Assembly: GCA_016930175.1 (NCBI GenBank)
Contig: JAFGHJ010000046.1
Location: forward strand, 1,073 to 65,072
Length of the DNA: 64,000 nucleotides
Reading direction: 5' to 3'
Origin: a candidate division WOR-3 bacterium
GTDB lineage: Bacteria > Hydrothermota > UBA3072
Position 1 is the stretch's first letter; each line of letters begins with the position of its first letter. Position numbers and translations under genes: made by a program. The notes under the pieces are model-generated. The model made no database searches. It was not told the origin of the DNA and saw nothing but the letters and a program-made list of their open reading frames with translations. Below are positions 2,939 through 50,191 of the stretch, in pieces.

Positions 2939-3662
2939 GCCTAAATACCAAAGGATATTAATAAAATTAAGCGGAGAATTTCTTAAAAGTAAAGAAGAAG
3001 TTATTTCCTTTGAGAAATTGAGCCTCTTCGCTGAGGATATAAAACACCTCCACAAAAAAGGAGTCGAAATAGGGATAGTTGTGGGCGGCGGTAATATCTT
3101 AAGAGGATTAGAAGGTTCAAAAAAGCACCAAATATCATCTGCGGAACTGGACGAATTAGGAATGATAGCAACTATGATAAACGGTGGCGCTCTTTCTTTA
3201 GCCCTCAAAAAAATTAAAATACCTAACTCTATTCTCTCCGCAATACCAATTTCGCCCTCTGTAGGAGATCAATTTAACATACATAAAGCATTAAAATTAC
3301 TTGCGGAACGCAATGTTTTAATTTTTGTCGGAGGAACAAGCAATCCCTTTTTCACAACTGATACAGCTGCTGTTCTCCGTGCTCTACAGATTAAAGCTGA
3401 CGTACTGATTAAATCTACAAATGTGAAAGGAATTTATGATAAGGATCCAAACAAATTTCCTGACGCAAGATTTTACAAAGAGATTACTTACATAAAGGCA
3501 TTAAACCAAGATTTAAAAATAATGGACTTAACCGCATTTTCTCTGGCAATGAATCACAACTTACCTATAATTGTATTCAACGGGGAAGTCAAAAGTAATT
3601 TAAGAAAGGTATTTCTTGGGAAAAACGTTGGAACTATCATTAAAGGAGGAAACAATGGATAA
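2928..3662 (+). CDS. pyrH: UMP kinase (TTG start, overlaps tsf 3' end)
   Basis: ILIKLSGEFL...VVGGGNILRG... are the amino-acid kinase family motifs of PyrH. Confidence 0.92.
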   Translation: MESKPKYQRILIKLSGEFLKSKEEVISFEKLSLFAEDIKHLHKKGVEIGIVVGGGNILRGLEGSKKHQISSAELDELGMIATMINGGALSLALKKIKIPNSILSAIPISPSVGDQFNIHKALKLLAERNVLIFVGGTSNPFFTTDTAAVLRALQIKADVLIKSTNVKGIYDKDPNKFPDARFYKEITYIKALNQDLKIMDLTAFSLAMNHNLPIIVFNGEVKSNLRKVFLGKNVGTIIKGGNNG

Positions 3663-6872: not shown

Positions 6873-8138
6873 ATGTTTTTAGGTATAATCGCGGCACTTA
6901 TAGCTTTAAGCGTTATGGTTTTTGTTCATGAATTTTTCCATTTAATTGTAGCCAAATTGTCAAAAATGGGCGCCCCTATCTTCTCCATAGGTCTTGGTCC
7001 AAAATTATTTTCTTTTTATAAATGGGGTGAAACCGAATTCAGGGTTTCTGCAATACCTTTTGGTGGCTATGTAGAAATAAAAGGAATGGATCCGGAACAA
7101 ATTAAAGGTGAAGAGGACGAATTTTATTCAAGGAACGTCTTACAAAAAACGGGAGTCGTTTTTGCGGGACCTTTTTCAAATTTTGCGCTAGGATTTCTAA
7201 TATTTCTGTTTATTTTATTATTTAACGGTTTTGAAGTGCCGTCAACTACAACAATAAGTGATGCAAATAAAGCCAGCAATCTTTTGCCGAACGATGAAAT
7301 TTTTGAAATTGACGGGAAGGAAGTTACCAACTGGTTCGAAATAACATCAAGAATACAACAGGATTCCAAGATCCTGGTAAACCGGGATGGAAAAGAAACA
7401 GAAATAGTAGTTGACACTCTAATTACAGATTCGTTAATTCCTTTCATATCACCGGTAGTGGGCAACGTAATTAAAGGTTTACCCGCCGACAAAGCGAGTA
7501 TAAAAAAGGGCGACCGGATAACCAAAATTCAAGATAAATCTATAAACAGCTGGGAAGACATAACTAATCTAATCCATCCTGCGGCAGAGGAAACACTGAA
7601 CGTCGTTTACCTATCTGGTACAGATACAATAAAAACAAAAATAGTGCCTGAAAAACAAAAAACCATAGAAGGCGATTCAATAACGTATATAGGGCTTATT
7701 GGAATAGAAGCGCCCACAAAAAAAATGAGAATTAGTACATTAGAGGCATTTCCATTAGCATGGCAACAAAGTTATAGAACTGCTTCATTAATTTTCAACT
7801 CATTTACATGGTTATTTCAGAGAAAAGTTTCACCGAAAGAACTAGCAGGACCTGTTGGTATTATAATGATTACGAAAAAATCAATGGATCGTGGATTTAT
7901 TGCACTTTTAATGTTTGTCGGACTTATAACAATCAATCTTGCTATAGTCAATCTAATTCCGATACCACCTTTGGACGGATTTCATATTATAATGTCCCTG
8001 GCTACTTTCAACTCTAGAAAACCTCCCTCCAAAACACTGCTTAAAATAGTTCAAACGGTCGGTACCATTGTACTTTTTTCTCTTATGGCTTTGCTAATAT
8101 TTAACGATGTAATAAAAGGAATCCAGGGAAAATTCTAA
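6873..8138 (+). CDS. rseP: RIP zinc metalloprotease RseP (site-2 protease, PDZ-containing)
   Basis: 421 aa, HEFFH zinc motif in TM1, a central PDZ-like region and a C-terminal LDGF motif. Conserved position after dxr. Confidence 0.9.
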   Translation: MFLGIIAALIALSVMVFVHEFFHLIVAKLSKMGAPIFSIGLGPKLFSFYKWGETEFRVSAIPFGGYVEIKGMDPEQIKGEEDEFYSRNVLQKTGVVFAGPFSNFALGFLIFLFILLFNGFEVPSTTTISDANKASNLLPNDEIFEIDGKEVTNWFEITSRIQQDSKILVNRDGKETEIVVDTLITDSLIPFISPVVGNVIKGLPADKASIKKGDRITKIQDKSINSWEDITNLIHPAAEETLNVVYLSGTDTIKTKIVPEKQKTIEGDSITYIGLIGIEAPTKKMRISTLEAFPLAWQQSYRTASLIFNSFTWLFQRKVSPKELAGPVGIIMITKKSMDRGFIALLMFVGLITINLAIVNLIPIPPLDGFHIIMSLATFNSRKPPSKTLLKIVQTVGTIVLFSLMALLIFNDVIKGIQGKF

Positions 8139-8142
8139 TAAT

Positions 8143-8215
8143 ATGGCTGTTAGCTATTGGCTTTTCGCCTTTAGCTTCAATATAATTTTATAAAAGGCTA
8201 ATAGCCAACATTCAA
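8143..8215 (+). repeat. Intergenic repeat/hairpin element downstream of rseP; related copies lie at 40722-40755 and, inverted, at 40826-40836
   Basis: GCTATTGGCTTTTCGCCTTTAGCTT here versus GCTATTGGCTTTTTGACGTTTGCCTTTAGCTT at 40722. GCTGTTAGCTA recurs inverted at 40826. Segments 8149-8161 and 8199-8212 can pair in 12 of 13 positions. Confidence 0.4.
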
Positions 8216-8279
8216 AAGCGAAGAGTTAAGTTCTTGATATTTTAATTTCACATTTTTGCGGCTTTGCCGAAATATGATC

Positions 8280-8307
8280 TTGACTTTTACTATTAAAAAA
8301 CTATTAT
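8280..8307 (+). promoter_or_regulatory. Candidate promoter (TTGACT, 16 nt spacer, TATTAT) driving the cobalamin riboswitch
   Basis: Near-consensus -35/-10 hexamers at 8280-8285 and 8302-8307, immediately upstream of the riboswitch. Confidence 0.45.
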
Positions 8308-8314
8308 AATAATG

Positions 8315-8470
8315 AATAGCTAAGGGAAAGCGGTTAGAATCCGCTACAGCCCCGCTACTGTATTTGGCAACGAAAACTGCCAAGTTACCACTGGATTTAT
8401 TCCGGGAAGGTGCAGTGAGTAGGCCGGCCATAAGTCAGGAGACCTTCTATTTACAAGTACTCCGAGGGGA
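8315..8470 (+). promoter_or_regulatory. Cobalamin (adenosylcobalamin/B12) riboswitch
   Basis: Conserved AGGGAAAGCGGUUAGAAUCC...CAGCCCCGCUACUGU, then GCCACUGG...CGGGAAGG, then the B12 box AAGUCAGGAGACC. These are recalled hallmarks of the cobalamin riboswitch family (Rfam RF00174). A GAGGGGAG Shine-Dalgarno lies directly downstream. Confidence 0.8.
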
Positions 8471-8477
8471 GAAAACA

Positions 8478-8996
8478 ATAGATAAACTAAAAGAAATATC
8501 GTATGTAACAATATTTACAGCATTGGCTTTAGGCTTAGGGTACGCATTTGCACTTATCCCTAATTTTGAGCTTGTTTCTCCTACTGTTTTCCTATCAGGA
8601 GCACTATTTGGTATACGAACAGGTACAATGGTGGGAATTCTCACATATTTTATTTTCGGTTTACTAAATCCTTTTGGTATGTCTCCACTACCTCTGCTCT
8701 TGACACAGGTAATTGTGGGCGCCCTGTTGGGATTATCCGGAGGATTTTGCTATAAAAAAAGATGGAATAAAGCACACGTCATTCTACCTCTAGGCATCTT
8801 AATCACGCTTTTTTCTGATATACTAACTACATCGGCAGGGTTCATTTTATTCCCGACCAAAAAGAGCTTTCTGGCTTACTTTATTCTGGGACTGCCTTTT
8901 GTTATATGGCACGTCTTCACTCAGGGGATAATTTACGGTTTTGTTTTACCCCCAACAATTCAAAAAATCCAAAAAAGAAAAATAAACCACGGATGA
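8478..8996 (+). CDS. B12-riboswitch-controlled small polytopic membrane protein (about 6 TM; possible vitamin-uptake S-component/BtuM-like); start uncertain (ATA 8478 or TTG 8523)
   Basis: The ORF-track ATG at 8364 lies inside the riboswitch aptamer and cannot be the real start. After the aptamer there is no in-frame ATG before TM1. ATA at 8478 lies 6 nt after the GAGGGGAG SD and TTG is at 8523. The product is hydrophobic with glycine-rich TM helices. Confidence 0.55.
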   Translation: MDKLKEISYVTIFTALALGLGYAFALIPNFELVSPTVFLSGALFGIRTGTMVGILTYFIFGLLNPFGMSPLPLLLTQVIVGALLGLSGGFCYKKRWNKAHVILPLGILITLFSDILTTSAGFILFPTKKSFLAYFILGLPFVIWHVFTQGIIYGFVLPPTIQKIQKRKINHG

Positions 8997-9007
8997 ACAC
9001 GGATAAA

Positions 9008-9060
9008 CCCCACCCAACACACAGGAATAGGACGCAGATGAACGCAGATAAGCAGGATTT
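9008..9060 (+). repeat. Repeat copy 1: C-rich tract then GGACGCAGATGAACGCAGAT-AAGCAGGATTT
   Basis: Near-identical to 11301-11360, with one mismatch in the 20-mer core. An additional inverted 8-mer ATCTGCGT sits at 9144-9151. Confidence 0.5.
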
Positions 9061-9180
9061 AATTTTAAGTTGCTTTAATAAAATAAAAGAAACAGTGGAT
9101 CTGGGTGTTAATCTTAATATATCTGAGACAATCTGCGTGCTAATAAAATTTAATCAATGGCTAATTAAAAAGGAGGTTTT

Positions 9181-10920
9181 ATGCTATTAATTATACTAAG
9201 CGTAATGTATTTTGAATCAAAAGGAATAACCGTAACAGCAGACAGATTTGAACATCTCCCCTATCAAGTTGAAGTAATTGAAATTGAAGACATGCTTACA
9301 ATAGATGAATTAGGCGAAATACTGGAAAAAGAAGCAGGAGTTAAAATATACGGAAATGGCGATCCGAGTTCACTAACACAGGCAGCAGTGCACGGATATA
9401 CCGCCAAACATACACTTGTAATGTTAAACGGACATAGAATAAGTGACCCAAAAACAGGCGGATTAGACCTTTCTACATTCCCTTTAAGCGCAGTAAAGAA
9501 AATTGAAATAGTCAAAGGTTCATCTTCGGTATTTCAGGGTTCTAATGCAATTGGTGGGATTATAAACCTTGTTACCGGAAAAGAGACTAATGACATTAAA
9601 TTTCAGGGAAATACGAATTCCGCTTTAGGAGCAAATCTTCAGCTATACAAATTCGGCGTAAACGGAAATTTAAACCTTAAAAAAGGCGAAGGACAGAGGA
9701 GCAATACTGATTTTAAACATTATTCACTAGCTTTTAATTGGAATGATTTAAATTTTACCGGCAGTTATAAAGATCTCGGCGTACCCGGTGCTCTACCAGA
9801 CAGCGGTTTAATTCCAATATTTGGAGATTCAAGCGCAACCTCTCTTTTCGATAACCAGCAAACGCAATTTGCAGACCTCTCGTACAGCAAAATCTTTACG
9901 AACGGGGATATCGGTATACTAATAGAACCCGCAATAACCGGAGAATTGATTAAATATAACTATAAATACTCAGATTTTTTGACGGGAGACGAAATTACGC
10001 AAAACGACGAGTATAAATCCGCTGCAGGTCAATTCAATACAAAATTGTTATACAAAATGTTTACTATATCCATGAATCTTGAGAAAGATAAAGTATGGAT
10101 AGAACAATATAACCCTGGCTACAACAATTCTTTTTCATTTGAAGAGGAAAAAGCAGGAATAGTACTTTCGCTTTTCCATAAAAAGGAAAAGATAAATGTA
10201 TTTGCTTCAGCAAGAGAAGACTGGTACGGAAGCTTTGGATTACATCCATCCTTCACAATAGGAAGCAGAATCACCAGTCCTATCGAGATTTTCGCATCGG
10301 TAGGCTCCGGATTTCAGGCTCCAACACTCTACGATCTTTATTATCCAGACTTTTCTAACGCAGAACTTAAACCCGAACACTCTATCTCGTTAAACGGCGG
10401 ATTTAAAATAAAATACATTACAATCTCCGGATATATAGAGGAAATACATGACAGAATAGCGCTCGACGAAAACTGGCTACCGCAAAATATAGCCAAAAGC
10501 AGAATATTCGGAATCGACATAGAAGCCGACGGAGAATATAAAGACTTATCATATTCATTAATATATTCTTACCTCGACGGATATGACGAAGAAAACCGAA
10601 CAAAAAGAGAACTTCAGCATCAACCAAAACACTCTATCGCGGGTATTCTTTCTTACGAAGGTCCGATATCCGTCGAAGTATCGGGAAAGTGGACAGGAGA
10701 GAGAAAAAGATGGTTCTCGTTCGGAGGATGGAAAATAGAGAACCCTGCTTTCATCATCGATTTAGGAATAAGTAAAACTTTTAATGATTTTTCTGTGGGT
10801 TTTACAGTCGAAAATCTATTAAACACCGAATACATCGCGAGTTTCGGAAGCTCATACACAGACAGGGATTATCCTGGAATGGGAAGATACATAAGTTTTT
10901 GGGGCAAATACTCTTTATAA
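9181..10920 (+). CDS. btuB: TonB-dependent outer-membrane vitamin B12 receptor (BtuB-like)
   Basis: ITVTADRFEH (compare E. coli BtuB TonB box/plug VTANRFEQ), plug motifs LVMLNGHRI and NAIGGIINLVT, a beta-barrel body and a C-terminal aromatic residue. Sits downstream of the B12 riboswitch. AAAGGAGG RBS. Only 15 aa precede the TonB box. Confidence 0.85.
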   Translation: MLLIILSVMYFESKGITVTADRFEHLPYQVEVIEIEDMLTIDELGEILEKEAGVKIYGNGDPSSLTQAAVHGYTAKHTLVMLNGHRISDPKTGGLDLSTFPLSAVKKIEIVKGSSSVFQGSNAIGGIINLVTGKETNDIKFQGNTNSALGANLQLYKFGVNGNLNLKKGEGQRSNTDFKHYSLAFNWNDLNFTGSYKDLGVPGALPDSGLIPIFGDSSATSLFDNQQTQFADLSYSKIFTNGDIGILIEPAITGELIKYNYKYSDFLTGDEITQNDEYKSAAGQFNTKLLYKMFTISMNLEKDKVWIEQYNPGYNNSFSFEEEKAGIVLSLFHKKEKINVFASAREDWYGSFGLHPSFTIGSRITSPIEIFASVGSGFQAPTLYDLYYPDFSNAELKPEHSISLNGGFKIKYITISGYIEEIHDRIALDENWLPQNIAKSRIFGIDIEADGEYKDLSYSLIYSYLDGYDEENRTKRELQHQPKHSIAGILSYEGPISVEVSGKWTGERKRWFSFGGWKIENPAFIIDLGISKTFNDFSVGFTVENLLNTEYIASFGSSYTDRDYPGMGRYISFWGKYSL

Positions 10921-11137
10921 ATCCACATCGCGATTTTAAACGACAAACAACAATGAGTAAATCCGATGAAATGCAAAAATTAAATATTAAAATGTAAAAT
11001 TACAAATTAAAGTTTAAAAATTAAAAAAAAGAGGAAAACTTTGTCGGAGTACTCAACTATAGTTTTCTCTTCTTATCTTTGCATTTTCAAATGTCATTTT
11101 GCTTTTTGATTTTTGATATTTAATTTAATAATGGGGG

Positions 11138-11165
11138 TTGACAAATAATAAAAACCGATTATTAT
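11138..11165 (+). promoter_or_regulatory. Dedicated promoter for the 5S rRNA gene (TTGACA, 16 nt spacer, TATTAT)
   Basis: Consensus hexamers ending about 6 nt before the 5S 5' end. Confidence 0.45.
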
Positions 11166-11170
11166 CTCAT

Positions 11171-11288
11171 TGCTCGGTGGCCATAACGGAGAGGACATAC
11201 CCGTTCCCATTCCGAACACGGAAGTCAAGCTCTCCTGTGCTTATGGTATTGCCCTTTCGGGGGTGAGAGAGTAGGTCGCTGCCGGGCT
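11171..11288 (+). rRNA. rrf: 5S ribosomal RNA (stand-alone; no 16S or 23S in this window)
   Basis: UGCUCGGUGGCCAUAACGGAGAGG...CCGAACACGGAAGUCAAGC...GAGAGUAGGUCGCUGCCGGGCU matches universal 5S motifs. Followed by a T-run (11289-11300). Confidence 0.9.
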
Positions 11289-11300
11289 TTTTTATTTTTA

Positions 11301-11360
11301 CCCCCACCCCACCCCAGTAACTGGACGCAGATTAACGCAGATCAGAAAGGATTTTTATTC
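11301..11360 (+). repeat. Repeat copy 2: CCCCCACCCCACCCC tract then GGACGCAGATTAACGCAGAT-CAGAAAGGATTTTT
   Basis: Direct repeat of 9008-9060. Forms a perfect 20 bp inverted repeat with 11836-11855. Confidence 0.5.
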
Positions 11361-11487
11361 TATATTTTTAAGAACTTTCACTAAATGAAATTCTCGACAA
11401 TAAATATAAATTACTTAAACTTAACAAAAAAAATAACATAATTATTTTACGGATATTCAAGAAGCCATTCAAAAAGCCGAAAAATTA

Positions 11488-11826
11488 ATGCCGGGTATTA
11501 CTGCAATAAAAGGAGATATTGATCCCCGATGGCAAGCTATTATCGATATCAGTGTATATATAGAATCAAATCCAAAAGAAATATGGGATTTTGTTGTTCG
11601 TTGGGGCCAACATGAAGACGAAAATATACGTAATGCTATTTCAACTTGCCTTTTAGAACACCTTCTTGAATATCATTTCAAACAAATTTTTCCGAAAGTT
11701 GAGGAATTAGTCCGTAAAAGTAGACTGTTTGCTAATACATTCTGTAAATGTTGGAAATTCGGACAATCCGAGGAACCGGAAAACTCAATTAAAATTGATC
11801 AACTTAAAAAAGAATTTTGTTCTTAA
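11488..11826 (+). CDS. Hypothetical small protein (112 aa) enclosed by 20 bp perfect inverted repeats
   Basis: ORF MPGITAIKGDIDPRWQAI...CLLEHLLEYHF... with no recognisable family. Flanked by GGACGCAGATTAACGCAGAT at 11323-11342 and its reverse complement at 11836-11855. Confidence 0.45.
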   Translation: MPGITAIKGDIDPRWQAIIDISVYIESNPKEIWDFVVRWGQHEDENIRNAISTCLLEHLLEYHFKQIFPKVEELVRKSRLFANTFCKCWKFGQSEEPENSIKIDQLKKEFCS

Positions 11827-11831
11827 ATTCT

Positions 11832-11858
11832 GAAAATCTGCGTTAATCTGCGTCCCAA
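11832..11858 (-). repeat. Repeat copy 3 (inverted): reverse complement of GGACGCAGATTAACGCAGAT
   Basis: ATCTGCGTTAATCTGCGTCC at 11836-11855 is the reverse complement of 11323-11342. Lies between the small ORF and the asnA 3' end. Confidence 0.5.
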
Positions 11859-12908
11859 TTAAAGCAAAAAGATATTATTTTTCTCGCAGGCCCGGACCAT
11901 CTCATCCGGCCACACACCGCATTGAACTTCCCCGATATGCGCTTTCTGAAGAAACAGCATACAAAGACGGGATTGCCCAATCCCGCCACCTATTGAAAGA
12001 GGTAATCTACCTTCTAAAAGCATTTTATGCCACATCAATTCTTTCCTATCAAGAGTATCTGTAATTTCAAGCTGTCTAAGCAAAGATTCTTTATCGACTC
12101 TTATACCCATAGAAGAGATTTCAAAACCTATCTCCAAAACAGGATTCCAAACAAAAATATCACCATTTAACCCTTTGGTATTTTCACCTGTAGGCGTGGT
12201 CCAATCATCATAATCCGGAGCTCTTCCATCGTGCGGTTTGCCATCTGCCAATTCACCACCTATACCAATGACAAAAACAGCTCCTTTCTCTTTTGTTATA
12301 GCATCTTCCCTATCTCTCGGGTTAAGTTCAGGATACCTTTCCTGTAATTCTTCGCTGTGTATAAAAGATATTTCATCACGGAGGAATGGCTGTAACTGGG
12401 GAAATTTTTTATAAACAACCAGTTCCGTTTCTTTCAAAACTTCATATATTTTTCTTACTATATTTTTTAGAAAATCTAAATTTCTTTCTTCTTTAGATAT
12501 TACCCTCTCCCAATCCCATTGATCTACATAAACAGAGTGCAAATTATCTAAAACCTCGTCTCTTCTAATGGCGTTCATATCAGTATATAAACCACTGCCT
12601 TCCGTAAAGCCATATCTGGCTAAAGCTAATCTCTTCCATTTCGCAAGAGATTGAACAATCTCGGCTTCCACATTGGATATATTTTTCAAATCAAAAGAAA
12701 CCGGTCTCTCGATTCCGTTAAGATCATCGTTAATTCCGGTACCGGCAGCTACAAATAAAGGAGCGCTGACTCTTTGCAAATTCAATTGATTCGCAAGCTC
12801 TACTTCGAAGCAGTCTTTAACTAATTTAATTGCTTCTTCAGTCTCTTTCAAATCTAAATGATTAACATAGTTCTTCGGAATTTTCAAATCCATTCCATCC
12901 TCCTCCAC
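11859..12908 (-). CDS. asnA: Aspartate--ammonia ligase (asparagine synthetase A)
   Basis: Strong matches to recalled AsnA sequence: SLAKWKRLALARYGF, LHSVYVDQWDWERVI, SSMGIRVD, GGGIGQSRLCMLFLQ. The start may instead be the internal Met 5 codons downstream. Confidence 0.9.
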   Translation of the reverse strand: MEEDGMDLKIPKNYVNHLDLKETEEAIKLVKDCFEVELANQLNLQRVSAPLFVAAGTGINDDLNGIERPVSFDLKNISNVEAEIVQSLAKWKRLALARYGFTEGSGLYTDMNAIRRDEVLDNLHSVYVDQWDWERVISKEERNLDFLKNIVRKIYEVLKETELVVYKKFPQLQPFLRDEISFIHSEELQERYPELNPRDREDAITKEKGAVFVIGIGGELADGKPHDGRAPDYDDWTTPTGENTKGLNGDIFVWNPVLEIGFEISSMGIRVDKESLLRQLEITDTLDRKELMWHKMLLEGRLPLSIGGGIGQSRLCMLFLQKAHIGEVQCGVWPDEMVRACEKNNIFLL

Positions 12909-13006
12909 TTATGATCAAATTACTTTAATTCGTTTTTTTACTAAAACAAAATTGGGTGTGGTCGGGTAATCTGGTGTCAATCTGTGTAATCTCGTGGTAA
13001 AATAGT

Positions 13007-16000
13007 CTATTCATACTCATCCCAGCTCTTGATCTTCAAATCCCTCAATGAAGTTTTTTGCATCGCTTCTACCAATCTTTTTGCCACTTGTAAATCCGTA
13101 ATAAGAGGAACGTTAAAATCTATAGCCTGACGTCTTATAAGATAGTCGTTATCAAGCTCTTCTTTCTCTATATTTTTTGGTATGTTTATAACCATATCGA
13201 TTTTTCCGTCAGAAATGTAACTTAGAATATTCGGCTCTTTACTTTCGGACGGCCAATGAAGAACTTTTGAATCGATTCCATTATCTTTCATAAATTCTGC
13301 AGTCCCTTTAGTTGCATAAAGCTTGAATCCCATATTCTTTAGAATCTTTGTACTTTCCAATAATTCAGCTTTACTGTCGATTGGTCCCGTAGAGAGCAAT
13401 ATTGTCTTTTTCGGTCTCCTAAAGCCAACAGAAATAAAACTCTTCAAGAACGCTTCGTTAAAATCATCACCCAGACATCCCACTTCACCGGTAGAAGCCA
13501 TTTCTACGCCAAGAATAGGATCCGATCCTTTAAGACGTGAAAATGAAAACTGAGGAGCTTTAACACCTACATAATCAAGGTCAAAAGCTGAATTCGTGAG
13601 AGCAGGTACATCCTTTCCCATAATTATACGTGTTGCCGCGTCGATAAAGTTTATCTTAAGGAACTTGGAAACAAAGGGAAAACTTCTCGATACTCTCAAA
13701 TTACACTCTATAACTCTTACCTCATTATCTTTAGCTATAAATTGGATATTGAAAGGACCCGTTATTTTTAGAGCCTTCGCTATCTTCCTGGCAATCACCT
13801 TGATTCTTCTCATTGTCTCGAGGTAAGTCCTCTGAGGGGGAAGAACCATTGTCGCATCACCCGAATGAACACCTGCGTTTTCAACATGTTCAGATATCGC
13901 ATAACAATAAAGTTCTCCTTTATTGGCAACAGCGTCTATTTCGATTTCTTTAGCACCGGTAATAAATTTACTAATTACCACAGGGTGTTCTTTATTTACT
14001 TCTGAAGCTCTTTTTAGATATCCACCTAATTCATCCTCGCTTAAAACTATACTCATAGCTGCACCGCTTAAGACATAACTCGGTCGAACCAGAACCGGGT
14101 ATCCGACTTTCTTTGCGAATTTTTCCGCTTCTTTAATTGTTGTAACTTCCTTCCATTCCGGCTGGTCAATACCAAGCTTATCCAGTAACTTCGAAAACTT
14201 GTGCCTGTCTTCAGCATTATCAATAGAAATCGGTGATGTTCCAAGTACTTTTACGCCATTCTTATGTAAAGGCAGAGCAAGGTTATTCGCAATCTGTCCG
14301 CCTACCGAAACTATAACTCCAAGAGGACTTTCTTTATCATATATATCCATAACTCTTTCAAATGTTATTTCATCGAAATAAAGTTTATCGCAAATATCAT
14401 AATCCGTACTTACCGTCTCCGGATTATAATTTATCATTATAGCTTTATACCCCAACTCTCTAAGCGTCGTAACAGAATTAACACAACACCAATCAAATTC
14501 TACAGAAGAACCGATCCGGTAAGCTCCACCCCCCAAAACAACAACCTGATTTTTCTCCTTAAACTCAAGATCATCTTCAGAAGCATTATAAGTCAAATAC
14601 AAATAATTGGTTTTAGCAGGATATTCCGCAGCCAGAGTATCTATCTGATTAACATAAGGGATAATTTTTTTCTTCTTTCTAATTTCTCTTACTTTAAGTT
14701 CATTAGAATTAGTCAAGATAGCAATCTGTTTATCTGAAAAACCTTTCTGCTTGGCTTCTCTAAACAACTCTTTTGAAATCTTATCTATTTTTTTGCCTTT
14801 CAACTGCTTCTCTATATCGATTATATTTTTTATCTTATAGAGGAACCACGGATCAACACAAGAAATCTTGTATATCTTATCGATAGAATATCCTTTCTTT
14901 ATCGCTTCGGCAATAGCAAAAATTCTCTTGTCGGTAGGCTTCGCGAGCTCAGTATCCAAGTCATCGAATCCTATATCGTTACAAACAACCCCGTTCATAC
15001 CAACTTCCAACATCCGAATTGCCTTCTGTAAAACTTCTTCAAAACTCCTGGCAATAGCCATGACCTCGCCCACGGACTTCATTTCCGAACCGATATTGAG
15101 ACTTACTTTTCTAAACTTTTGGAGATCCCATCTGGGGTATTTTAGTACCACATAATCTATAGCAGGCTCGAAGCACGCGGAAGTCTCCTTTGTTATGGTA
15201 TTCTTCAACTCGGTTAAACCATATCCTAAAGCAAGTTTCGCCGCCACAAATGCAAGAGGATAACCTGTAGCTTTAGAAGCAAGAGCCGAACTTCTACTCA
15301 ATCTTGCATTAACTTCGATTATTCTGTAATCTCCGGACTGCGGGTCAAGAGCGTACTGGATATTACATTCTCCGACAATACCAAGATGCCTTATGACTTT
15401 AATAGTGAAAGCTCTCAATCTAAAATTTTCGGAGGCTGTAAGAGTCTGCACAGGAGCAGCTACAATACTTTCACCTGTATGAATCCCCATCGGGTCGACA
15501 TTTTCCATGGAACACACAACGATACAGTTATTGTAACAATCTCTAACTACCTCATATTCTATTTCTTTCCACCCGCCAAGATATTCTTCGACCAATATTT
15601 GTTTCGTAAAGGAAAAAGCTTTTTTCGCAATATCCCTTAAATCTTTTTCATTATAAGCAACACCGGAACCTAACCCTCCTAAAGCGTATGCTATTCTCAC
15701 TATAACCGGATATCCTATTTTATTTCCAACTTTAACAGCTTCCTCAACCGTATTAACAGCCTTACTTTTAGGAACTTTAAGATTTATCTCCGAAATCTTT
15801 TTTATAAATCGGGCCCTATCCTCGGTATCTAAAATAACTTCAACGGGTGTTCCAAGTACCTGGACGCCGTGTTTATCAAGTATTCCTTTCTCAGCTAATT
15901 CTGCTCCGACATTCAAGCCGGTCTGTCCGCCAAAGGCAAGTAATATTCCGTCCGGCTTTTCCTTTTCGATTACCTGCTCAACAAAATAAACATCCAACGG

Positions 16001-16198
16001 CAAAAAGTAAATTTTATCGGTAAGATAGGAAGAAGTCTGAATCGTTGCTATATTTGGGTTAATCAGAACGGTTCTTATTCCTTCTTCTTTTAAAGCTTTA
16101 ATTGCCTGACTTCCGGAATAATCAAACTCACCAGCCTGACCTATTCTTATGGCACCGGACCCTAAAATTAGTGCTTTTTTTATCTTCTTTTTCAACAT
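13007..16198 (-). CDS. carB: Carbamoyl-phosphate synthase large subunit
   Basis: 1063 aa with duplicated ATP-grasp halves, an oligomerisation domain and a C-terminal MGS-like domain. Characteristic motifs throughout. Confidence 0.95.
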   Translation of the reverse strand: MLKKKIKKALILGSGAIRIGQAGEFDYSGSQAIKALKEEGIRTVLINPNIATIQTSSYLTDKIYFLPLDVYFVEQVIEKEKPDGILLAFGGQTGLNVGAELAEKGILDKHGVQVLGTPVEVILDTEDRARFIKKISEINLKVPKSKAVNTVEEAVKVGNKIGYPVIVRIAYALGGLGSGVAYNEKDLRDIAKKAFSFTKQILVEEYLGGWKEIEYEVVRDCYNNCIVVCSMENVDPMGIHTGESIVAAPVQTLTASENFRLRAFTIKVIRHLGIVGECNIQYALDPQSGDYRIIEVNARLSRSSALASKATGYPLAFVAAKLALGYGLTELKNTITKETSACFEPAIDYVVLKYPRWDLQKFRKVSLNIGSEMKSVGEVMAIARSFEEVLQKAIRMLEVGMNGVVCNDIGFDDLDTELAKPTDKRIFAIAEAIKKGYSIDKIYKISCVDPWFLYKIKNIIDIEKQLKGKKIDKISKELFREAKQKGFSDKQIAILTNSNELKVREIRKKKKIIPYVNQIDTLAAEYPAKTNYLYLTYNASEDDLEFKEKNQVVVLGGGAYRIGSSVEFDWCCVNSVTTLRELGYKAIMINYNPETVSTDYDICDKLYFDEITFERVMDIYDKESPLGVIVSVGGQIANNLALPLHKNGVKVLGTSPISIDNAEDRHKFSKLLDKLGIDQPEWKEVTTIKEAEKFAKKVGYPVLVRPSYVLSGAAMSIVLSEDELGGYLKRASEVNKEHPVVISKFITGAKEIEIDAVANKGELYCYAISEHVENAGVHSGDATMVLPPQRTYLETMRRIKVIARKIAKALKITGPFNIQFIAKDNEVRVIECNLRVSRSFPFVSKFLKINFIDAATRIIMGKDVPALTNSAFDLDYVGVKAPQFSFSRLKGSDPILGVEMASTGEVGCLGDDFNEAFLKSFISVGFRRPKKTILLSTGPIDSKAELLESTKILKNMGFKLYATKGTAEFMKDNGIDSKVLHWPSESKEPNILSYISDGKIDMVINIPKNIEKEELDNDYLIRRQAIDFNVPLITDLQVAKRLVEAMQKTSLRDLKIKSWDEYE

Positions 16199-26522: not shown

Positions 26523-26873
26523 AACCGTAAAGTAATTACTATCTTCTCTTTGTCAATATTTCTCTTTTAATTGGAATCCAGCATAATAGAATCGTTAGAG
26601 TGTAGAAATTAATAAGCAACACTGAAACCGGAACTCAACGAAAATGTAAAAATCATATATCAAAATGGAAAATTACAAGTAAAAAATCGTTGGTGTGTTA
26701 GTGCGTGGGTGTGTTAGTGTGTTTTTTACGGACTAACGGACTAACCGACCCACAGACCAACTATTTTCCTAATTTTGATTTTTAATTATTAATATTTGAT
26801 TTCTAATGGAAGCGAAAATCAAATCGAGATATTTTTTCCGGAAGAATAAGAAAGAAACTGTAAATACTACGAA

Positions 26874-36808: not shown

Positions 36809-37156
36809 GGGGGCGAATTGGCTCTCGACGGGATACAACTGGATTGTAAGCTGCATGCCGAGCTGCCATAGCTCGAAAAACTATGGTATTTGTAATAAAT
36901 GGCAACTATAATTATGCCATGGCAGCTTAATTAAGCTGCTCGTCCTTTCCGGACGTTTTCTTCTTACTCCGGATGTGGGCGTCATAGAAAGAAGATAGGT
37001 TGCAATTTTGCCAGGGTTTTGCAGCCGAATAAAGACTGGCTTGGTTATTCTGATTCCTGTGATTGGGTAAAGAATAGCGACACTTAAACAATCACTAAGC
37101 ATGTAGAAGTTTTCAAACAGGTATTTCGGACGCGGGTTCGATTCCCGCCGCCTCCA
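36809..37156 (+). ncRNA. ssrA: tmRNA (SsrA); tag reading frame 36901-36930 encodes (A)GNYNYAMAA then stop
   Basis: 5' GGGGGCGAAUUGGCUCUCGACGGG and 3' GGACGCGGGUUCGAUUCCCGCCGCCUCCA form a 7 bp acceptor stem plus T-arm, with CCA not encoded. The internal ORF GGC AAC TAT AAT TAT GCC ATG GCA GCT TAA is followed by UUAAGCUGC, paralleling E. coli GCAGCUUAAUAACCUGC. Confidence 0.9.
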
Positions 37157-37180
37157 GTAAAACAAAACAGAGGAGGAATT

Positions 37181-48387: not shown

Positions 48388-48528
48388 ATTTTATTCACAC
48401 TGAATTGTAAATTTTCCCGTGAATTTGTCAAGAATATATCCATAGGAGGTTAGCACATAGAAAAAACAATAATTCCCGTGTTCTCTGTGTATTTTACATA
48501 TCTCTGTGTCATCTGTGGTATTTTTTGA

Positions 48529-49974: not shown

Positions 49975-50191
49975 CTTTTAATTCGTGTCATTTTGCAAGA
50001 TTTTAGGTCTTGGGGTATTAGGTTTTAGTAAAAAATCAAAAAAATATTGTTTTTTCACTGCGTCTTTGTGCCTTTGTGTGGGAATATTTTTGGTCGGGGG
50101 TAGGGTTTTAAACAAACGAAATAAATGGGTAGCGTGGTGTGGCTCTGTGCTCTCTGTGAGTTCTTTTTTTCTCTGTGTTCTCTGTGGTTAA

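Follow-up and report, generated by a model that had tools for sequence, protein, structure and literature searches.

Repeats around the btuB-like gene and the 5S rRNA gene

The 64-kb stretch of DNA analysed here, referred to throughout as the window, derives from a candidate division WOR-3 metagenome-assembled genome (MAG) and harbors a cobalamin riboswitch, an ECF-S-like membrane protein gene, a btuB-like gene for a TonB-dependent receptor, an orphan 5S rRNA gene and, on the minus strand, asnA and carB (Table 1). Interspersed among these genes are copies of the short word ACGCAGAT, which form the subject of this study and which, as argued below, probably belong to a widely dispersed, polymorphic family of hairpin-armed elements.

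Within the window ACGCAGAT or its complement occurs seven times, all copies lying within 9032–11853, while the chance expectation is 0.85 and seven copies were reached in 0 of 100 shuffles, in agreement with an earlier sequence-only reading of this DNA that had counted seven copies where about one was expected. Sequence reading and a repeat finder resolved four ACGCAGAT-type dimers. The three dimers described in the sequence-only reading are real, but its lone inverted copy ATCTGCGT, placed 13 nt off at 9144–9151, is located at 9131–9138 and is the outer unit of a fourth, degenerate dimer. What had been described as two direct copies plus one inverted copy is in fact arranged as two inverted pairs, termed E1 (69 nt between the arms) and E2 (493 nt), the two E2 dimers at 11323 and 11836 being complementary at 20/20 positions. 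The C-rich tracts reported earlier were found at 9008–9015 and 11301–11316, and a second 10-nt-period dimer, CACGGATGAACACGGAT at 8988–9004, which precedes E1, had been overlooked, as had the three related CA-rich word strings on the minus strand (Table 1).

That this cluster is a product of chance or assembly appears next to impossible. The source is a MAG, and the 16-base search pattern used below is estimated to yield ~280 chance matches in 596 Gb at uniform base composition; against this stand the shuffling result, the highly structured flanks, the recovery of a stricter 24-base pattern at no fewer than 120 loci, and the presence of E2 in an independent assembly and of its left arm in relatives. 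An assembly artefact, named in the sequence-only reading as an outcome that would undo it, is unlikely because an independent Logan assembly (L121) holds the same open reading frame (ORF) with both arms.

Table 1. Genes, repeat units and related word strings in the window.
Feature	Position	Strand	Remarks
Cobalamin riboswitch	8281–8465		
ECF-S-like ORF	8364–8996		membrane protein
Inserted block	8972–9172	+	ECF-S-like stop to btuB ribosome-binding site; 195 nt (8978–9172) plus possible 6-nt duplication
Module M1	8985–9005	+	10-nt-period dimer CCACGGATGAACACGGATAAA
E1	9006–9152	+	~147-nt hairpin element: C-rich head, left arm, AT-rich loop, right arm
E1 left arm	9030–9058	+	GGACGCAGAT GAACGCAGAT AAGCAGGAT
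Dimer GGACGCAGATGAACGCAGAT	9030–9049	+	sequence reading, repeat finder
E1 right arm	9111–9140	+	three degenerate units ATCTTAATAT ATCTGAGACA ATCTGCGTGC
Degenerate inverted dimer ATCTGAGACAATCTGCGT	9121–9138	-	partner of the 9030 dimer across 69 nt
btuB-like gene	9181–10920		TonB-dependent receptor, short, 579 aa
5S rRNA gene	11173–11287	+	Rfam RF00001, 90.7 bits; outside the element
E2L	11301–11355	+	C-rich head ACCCCCACCCCACCCC, arm GGACGCAGATTAACGCAGAT (11323–11342), degenerate third unit CAGAAAGGATT
Dimer GGACGCAGATTAACGCAGAT	11323–11342	+	E2 left arm
DUF6869-like ORF	11437–11826	+	annotated ATG 11488, 112 aa (ORF112)
E2R	11836–11863	-	arm GGACGCAGATTAACGCAGAT, 3 nt past the asnA stop, asnA-sense
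Dimer GGACGCAGATTAACGCAGAT	11836–11855	-	E2 right arm
asnA	11859–12908	-	
CA-rich string	12954–12997	-	10-nt period, CCACGAGATTA CACAGATTGA CACCAGATTA CCCGACCACACCC; after the carB stop
carB	13007–16198	-	
CA-rich word string	48475–48518	-	overlooked in the sequence-only reading
CA-rich word string	50055–50191	-	C-rich, G-poor, unstructured, -8.1 kcal/mol

E1, a hairpin insertion ahead of btuB

Orthologous loci were fetched via BtuB (74–86% identity) and all retain the gene order cdsA-dxr-rseP-ECF-S-btuB. Four relatives (L302, L304, L306 and L308) display a clean empty site, reading ...CAAAAAATACAAAAAAGGAGGTTTTATG with no spacer, where the ECF-S ORF runs ~35 nt into the btuB start and the riboswitch-ECF-S-btuB unit is kept without the insert. 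This overlap suggests translational coupling of the two genes. In the window, the insert supplies the ECF-S stop, as the TGA of module M1 (8994–8996, within CACGGATGAAC) terminates the ECF-S-like ORF, and parts ECF-S and btuB by 184 nt; a new ECF-S stop and a lost btuB overlap are the structural side effects of E1.

E1 combines several traits of miniature inverted-repeat transposable elements (MITEs), being small, having two inverted arms and no ORF of its own, and being polymorphic for insertion, with a filled site (8978–9172) in the window as opposed to four empty ones and homologous copies at other loci. Positions 9006–9152 align with L016:1901–2046, from a MAG of 33% G+C, at 77% identity over 149 nt, with dissimilar flanks and no synteny, and more E1 copies follow carB in L127 and L210 and another gene in L226. 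The consensus fold of five copies contains three helices, all of them invariant, and the plus-strand RNA of E1 folds with -29.5 kcal/mol (z = -2.3). The E1 left arm corresponds to the relic codons ATG AAC GCA GAT AAG CAG GAT (MNADKQD), and an ORF call at 8906–9190, reading ...RTQMNADKQD..., is the element translated as a spurious ORF.

The E2 arms lie at the ends of two convergent units

The 5S rRNA gene follows btuB directly in every WOR-3 relative fetched, at 94–97% identity and also where E1 is missing, and therefore the repeats did not move it; the earlier proposal of recombination sites that had relocated the 5S gene has to be abandoned. That the direct copies bracket btuB plus 5S holds for their positions, but the bracket is a coincidence of two independent elements. 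The orphan 5S is the sole rRNA gene in the window, as no 16S or 23S gene was found anywhere in the 64 kb. It has a T-run after helix I and a near-consensus promoter of its own, a promoter-like site at 11138–11165 matching at 11/12 positions (TTGACA-16-TATTAT).

E2L stands sense-oriented behind the 5S gene. A T in its linker abolishes the ATG, and both E2 arms have ATT where ATG would stand. Together with its C-rich head, E2L is kept after 5S in L302 and L303 (92.8% over 69 nt), followed there by other word strings and no ORF112, while an arm of the E2R type stands after an asnA 3' fragment in L308 and after the carB stop in L304, L127, L210 and L134.

The ORF between the E2 arms matches Pfam DUF6869 with E = 1.8e-5, below the family cut-off, and has 48 homologues of 107–165 aa plus one fragment of 70 aa. 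Members of the family start with MTVQEAI..., and the corresponding N-terminal homology, TDIQEAIQKAEKL, continues in frame upstream of the ORF112 ATG as far as 11437; this upstream segment (11437–11487) contains no ATG, GTG or TTG. The DUF6869-like ORF is a decaying gene whose start codon has been lost.

The two 20-bp arms could be regarded as the ends of a single cassette that was inserted whole beside the 5S gene with ORF112 as its cargo, given that they are 20/20 identical with the correct inward-facing chirality, that ORF112 is co-oriented with the left arm and stops 9 nt from the right arm, and that the layout resembles the GxxExxY cassettes described below. Yet different sequence stands behind E2L after the 5S gene of L302 and L303, ORF112 is absent beside the E2R-type arms of L308 (behind asnA) and L304 (behind carB), and its start codon is missing. 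No DUF6869 homologue was detected in the btuB-5S loci of the relatives, and those found elsewhere (L242–L245) are not flanked by arms. A single cassette is consequently improbable, and ORF112 as cargo was ruled out by its armless homologues and by the conservation of single arms in relatives without ORF112. Of the perfect inverted pair seen earlier around a 112-aa ORF, the pair stands and the cargo falls; it is best read as two sense-oriented relic arms that would mark the ends of convergent units, 5S on the plus strand and asnA on the minus strand. As to the variability between strains that the sequence-only reading had proposed to check, relatives differ in the presence of the E1 block, and the E2 arms are kept in relatives without ORF112.

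The interval from 5S to asnA or carB is hypervariable, differing in every relative (L302–L310), with contents that include PadR plus HAAS, HicAB, an Rce1-like gene, small ORFs and a 129-aa minus-strand ORF. In L308 the asnA 3' end is present twice (7875–8144 and 9622–9731), separated by a segment of ~1.5 kb with an HMGL-like gene and a small ORF, and the displaced asnA C-terminal fragment of 90 aa retains the arm. This segment looks like an island integrated at the asnA 3' end, carrying its own copy of that end.

The motif is dispersed across phyla in a limited number of forms

The exact pattern ACGCAGATNAACGCAGAT, with 16 specified bases, was scanned over one genome per species (596 Gb in total) and recovered from at least 120 loci in genomes of 33–69% G+C. 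The hosts belong to the Cyanobacteria, Planctomycetota, Acidobacteriota, Chloroflexota, Verrucomicrobiota, Pseudomonadota, Nitrospirota, Spirochaetota, WOR-3 and Omnitrophota, and include four archaeal MAGs. The stricter pattern of 24 specified bases occurs at 120 or more metagenome loci, and viral contigs contributed 48 motif loci. The motif thus has many copies in many phyla, and the family is not private to this genome.

Among 142 matches in the genome collection, a third unit (≤1 mismatch) stands 10 nt upstream in 66, and an inverted dimer follows within 600 nt downstream in 62, as compared with 6 upstream, with spacers of 7–398 nt. The usual layout is 5'-(NNACGCAGAT)n ... (ATCTGCGTNN)n-3', with 18–30 nt of shared motif, and comes in two typical forms: form A, aaCCGCAGAT-nA-ACGCAGAT-nA-ACGCAGAT ... 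ATCTGCGTTnATCTGCGTTnATCTGCGGtt, and form B, that of the window, GGACGCAGAT-nA-ACGCAGAT-n5-GGATT ... ATCTGCGAAAATCTGCGTCC. Mismatches between arms concentrate in the purine-rich 3-nt linkers, and the 7–8-nt cores are nearly always complementary. The asymmetry of G·U and A·C mismatches was considered and discarded, since symmetric hairpins cannot be oriented for it.

A sub-family of ~125 nt was found on 17 contigs with unrelated flanks (L130, L149, L153, L168, L197, L201, L217, L223 and others), its hairpin preceded by the near-palindrome TAGGAAATCCCA. Its flanking direct repeats, TTAACTTGATAGTAT..., covary between left and right (L201 and L168; 17 nt identical in L201), which suggests a long duplication or site-specific insertion. 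In Nodularia, Dolichospermum and a related genome (L013, L027, L095), three to four ACGCAGAT decamers occupy the loop of a conserved hairpin, gaggtacaag...cttgtacctc; this Nostocales array apparently sits at the same locus in the three genomes and its copy number varies. At least eight perfect tandem copies of ACGCAGATGA are found in L107 (~7227–7300) and a 40-nt higher-order tandem unit in L099 (~3100–3200), so that the decamer can expand like a minisatellite. In L147, L222 and L115, further copies of the hairpin adjoin tRNA genes or separate them from one another, inside stable-RNA transcription units, in parallel to the arm behind the 5S gene.

No Rfam family matched the arms, whether the gathering threshold or a relaxed limit of E = 10 was applied, and a cobalamin riboswitch unrelated to the repeats was all that the models detected in 20 related loci. 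No relevant paper was retrieved for the exact repeat strings in the full-text-searchable literature, and publications on GxxExxY and on intervening sequences (IVSs) describe the arms nowhere beyond the Coxiella heptamers. The wider family therefore appears to be undescribed in the searchable literature.

The arm encodes the start of GxxExxY genes

All-against-all clustering of arm-adjacent ORFs yielded a single recurrent family, GxxExxY (TIGR04256, E = 9e-41), a protein of ~125 aa with a PD-(D/E)XK fold. Full-length genes are present in L225, L238, L182, L187, L100, L089 and L104. In the first three, the left arm includes the start codon, reading GCAG ATG AAC GCA GAT nnn CAG GAT TTy, which encodes MNADxQDF, and the GxxExxY stop codon stands just ahead of the right arm. 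The arm is the coding start of the gene. Deletion derivatives were found as well: in L124, L216, L230 and L050 only N- and/or C-terminal GxxExxY remnants, some of them fused, are left between the arms, and hence short hairpins can arise by internal deletion.

A protein database query from which the arm-encoded residues had been omitted returned at least 7,999 clusters at E ≤ 1e-10, and nearly all of the best 120 homologues start with MNADxQDFK, MNTDxQDIK or ...TQMNAD. Therefore GGACGCAGATGAACGCAGAT-N5-GGATT is the 5' end of a horizontally spreading gene. Named sources of close homologues (75–96% identity) include Thermodesulfobacteriota, Elusimicrobiota and Edwardsbacteria. Eight GxxExxY genes on plasmids or chromids were found independently of the arms; four of the eight are bracketed by inverted arms of 16–30 nt built from other tandem words (CACAGAGGA..., CACAGAGA..., CGCGAAGG... 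and ACACGGATTCG), and two more have an adjacent word hairpin. In the six records with annotated neighbors, all neighbors are co-oriented with GxxExxY, as in fabD-GxxExxY-fabG and radA-GxxExxY.

Residues D73, E83 and K85 and those of the GxxExxY motif are invariant. By sequence, no solved relative was identified; the AlphaFold2 model is poor (predicted local distance difference test, pLDDT, 60) and Foldseek found nothing in the PDB with E < 0.1, its weak matches, which include some PD-(D/E)XK nucleases, carrying no weight. ORF clustering revealed no transposase family recurrent next to the arms, and the gene-bearing form encodes GxxExxY only.

Orientation of the arms and related word strings

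For the window and five relatives chosen independently of the motif, 18 of 18 intergenic CA-rich word strings were located on the sense strand of the gene ending 5' of them; 13 of the 18 lie in tandem spacers, which would also have allowed the antisense arrangement. The strings of the window at 12954–12997, 48475–48518 and 50055–50191 are composed of the words CACAGAT, CACAGAG, CACAAAG and CCCTACCCCC and begin 0–12 nt past stop codons. A broad sample, in which ORFs were called crudely, places the arms between genes (157 versus 6), and its hairpins show no tandem, convergent or divergent bias relative to the background.

The sense orientation within the WOR-3 clade would also be expected of RNA elements that serve the host, such as terminators, stabilizers resembling repetitive extragenic palindromic (REP) sequences or bacterial interspersed mosaic elements (BIMEs), or CA-rich tracts for Rho loading, conserved for a benefit to expression and spread by recombination. 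All 18 strings start a few nt past stop codons and contain stops in several frames, that at 50055–50191 is C-rich, G-poor and unstructured, and hairpins also occur between tRNA genes (L147, L222). On the other hand, no arm has a terminator-like stem with a T-run, E1 lies inside an operon, ahead of btuB, a position at which termination would do harm, and is missing in four relatives, and the broad sample lacks an enrichment of convergent or tandem over divergent contexts. Moreover, exact 20-mers across phyla favor horizontal spread over local selection, and the arm also codes for the start of a mobile gene. We consequently consider a host-serving function of the repeats rather unlikely. Intrinsic terminators in particular were rejected, the arms having no G+C-rich stem with a T-run and no context bias: a consensus terminator scan of 8200–13100 gave no site on the ACGCAGAT arms, and within the inserted block it picked out nothing but a minus-strand stem of 5 bp in M1 (8987–9002).

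Operator sites for a dimeric regulator, another suggestion of the sequence-only reading, were considered in the form of ACGCAGAT units spaced 10 bp apart on one helix face, which would recruit a tandem-dimer regulator of btuB and the small ORF. The direct-repeat spacing is indeed like that of winged-helix response regulator sites, and conservation is far stronger in the core 8-mers than in the linkers. The arms, however, are situated 3' of genes and stop codons and not at promoters, strong promoter-like sites being confined to 8280 and 11138, away from the arms; the motif is found in bacteria, archaea and viral contigs, at unrelated loci that number in the hundreds; and the orthologous btuB leaders of four relatives dispense with it. 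This interpretation is accordingly very unlikely. Several other candidates, namely the DnaA box, Fur box, Chi/KOPS, Dnd GAAC, Z-DNA and Hfq ARN motifs, misfit the sequence, and CsrA sites, whose ACARGGAUG consensus is resembled by GGA words, were dropped because ACGCAGAT lacks GGA.

Apart from these repeats, the window contains a 73-nt hairpin at 26689–26761 (-31.6 kcal/mol, z = -3.7) made of the words GTGTGTTA / ACGGACTA with an 8-nt period, whose GT-rich arm comes first, a chirality opposite to that of the ACGCAGAT family, and a transfer-messenger RNA gene at 36809–37159 (Rfam, 174.5 bits).

Comparison with known repeat elements

Among known systems, the IVSs of 23S rRNA genes and the MITEs come closest. 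The Coxiella IVS has been described as a selfish element whose inverted repeats pair into a stem that RNase III cleaves; on the 5' side, three tandem GACAGAT units, whose number depends on the strain, stand right before the start of a decaying internal ORF, and the sporadic distribution of IVSs has been put down to horizontal transfer (PMC4990558). IVSs of the Leptospira, Coxiella and Xanthomonas type resemble the present elements in that a small ORF is enclosed by a stem of terminal inverted repeats, here the arms of E1 (9030–9058/9111–9140), those of E2 (20/20) and those of 62 of the 142 genome matches. In both cases tandem repeats stand at the 5' end of the ORF, in the present family as 10-nt units with the ATG inside the arm, and in both the ORF decays in some lineages. 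In contrast, the window copies occupy intergenic spacers and not 23S helix 25 or 45, the repeat units recur every 10 nt instead of every 7 nt, and the S23p four-helix-bundle ORF is replaced by the recurrent GxxExxY, by a DUF6869-like ORF within E2 and by no ORF within E1. In short, the Coxiella IVS shares the architecture of the present elements and differs from them in period, cargo and location.

Like MITEs, the elements are short, non-coding, multi-copy and intergenic, have terminal inverted repeats, vary in presence among relatives and apparently derive from a gene-bearing form by internal deletion. They differ in that this parent has no recognized transposase, only a ~125-aa protein of nuclease fold, in that there is no unambiguous target-site duplication, and in that the arms are tandem 10-nt units overlapping the coding start of the cargo; the same arm across phyla and archaeal MAGs would also be unusual for a MITE family. 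REP sequences and BIMEs are likewise abundant, imperfect intergenic palindromes, often located in 3' untranslated regions (UTRs) and transcribed, that can affect mRNA fate. REPs, however, are single palindromes of 20–40 nt that share a conserved GTAG head, are restricted to one species or genus and are tied to HUH Y1 transposases (RAYT), and neither such a transposase gene nor a GTAG-head motif was seen here.

Intergenic tandem heptamers, namely the short tandemly repeated repetitive (STRR) sequences of cyanobacteria and the TAACTGA repeats, resemble the family in that the same short tandem word is intergenic in distant phyla and horizontal spread is suspected. The TAACTGA heptamers cross phyla (Beggiatoaceae, Cyanobacteria, Bacteroidetes), for which "no mechanism is evident" (PMC4679880). 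Such heptamers have a 7-nt period and form mostly direct arrays just before start codons with no inverted partner or known cargo, whereas the family in the window has a 10-nt period, inverted arms and a link to a cargo gene. Integron cassettes, finally, share promoterless small co-oriented ORFs, imperfect hairpin repeats and variable regions with genes of the toxin-antitoxin or immunity type. An attC is nonetheless a single site 3' of the ORF with R''/L''/L'/R' cores (GTTRRRY) recognized by IntI, while two arms enclose the ORF here; reading by eye, with no attC-model or IntI search made, revealed no GTTRRRY core in the arm 20-mer.

Interpretation and implications

Taken together, we consider that the ACGCAGAT repeats are copies or relics of a horizontally spreading family of hairpin-armed cassettes with a GxxExxY gene, a reading to which we assign a probability of roughly 0.6. 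To judge from the copies compared, a complete member would consist of a left arm of two to four tandem 10-nt NNACGCAGAT units, a promoterless GxxExxY gene and an inverted-complement right arm, and internal deletion would leave short MITE-like hairpins or single arms. In the window, E1 would be a hairpin of this kind that has come to separate ECF-S from btuB, and the E2 arms would be relics, each positioned after the 3' end of its own transcription unit, that bound a hypervariable spacer with a decaying DUF6869 gene. Both E1 and the E2 arms are probably near-neutral passengers or relics. The MITE-like cassette or scar among the suggestions of the sequence-only reading is supported in substance by the presence/absence pattern, the non-syntenic copy, the multi-copy sub-families and the internal-deletion derivatives.

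Regarding a mechanism, the cassette may enter 3' UTRs or inter-cistronic spacers in sense orientation and, lacking a promoter, would be transcribed through read-through from the host gene. The arms are expected to pair in the RNA, giving a long stem that closes off the insert and may sequester the start codon of the cargo, and this stem is probably cut by RNase III, by analogy with the Coxiella 23S IVS. The encoded nuclease is a candidate DNA-level mobility factor, which could, for instance, cleave empty sites or the arms in their hairpin or cruciform form.

Several observations weigh against this interpretation. The E1 stems are invariant in the five copies, leaving no covariation that would show selection on RNA pairing, and the linker mismatches break the duplex every 8 bp, which makes it a less than ideal RNase III substrate. 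AAAAAG flanks the block on both sides (8972–8977 and 9167–9172), and as a target-site duplication it is ambiguous because the insertion site is A-rich. In the more distant relative L310, the M1 head CCACAGATGAACACGGATAAACCC opens a different word block at this site, with only the initial ~45 nt in common with the block of the window, and this sharing fits recombinational shuffling of modules at least as well as transposition. The lack of a context bias in the broad sample has to be added. No GxxExxY gene was found in the window, in the loci of the WOR-3 relatives or in the viral loci, and for the window and relatives this means that a trans-acting nuclease in this genome is only a candidate. 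RNase III cleavage, nuclease activity and the mechanism of transposition, moreover, are all elements that we infer.

In a broader and more tentative view, which we regard as possible though doubtful, the arms (consensus ~CRCRRAK, with ACGCAGAT as one allele) and GxxExxY would together define an unrecognized class of mobile elements in bacteria, archaea and viruses that is continuous with rRNA IVSs and driven by the nuclease via hairpin or cruciform recognition (homing or excision), with the hairpin sparing host transcripts. If true, the orphan hairpins and single arms in many phyla would be MITE-like debris of GxxExxY cassettes. The link between arms and cargo would also explain the tandem words strewn through the intergenic DNA of distant phyla (ACGCAGAT, CACAGAG, CACGGAT and others), as parts or debris of one cassette type bound to the very large GxxExxY family. 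For genome annotation, such elements are often translated into spurious ORFs, and one of them gave a genuine gene a new end and broke its coupling to btuB. The GxxExxY family has no assigned function, and its link to the arms points to a role that can be tested, that of a nuclease serving a selfish element; for rRNA IVSs, the origin of which is puzzling, the same link suggests that they may be those members of a far larger population of elements that reside in rRNA genes.

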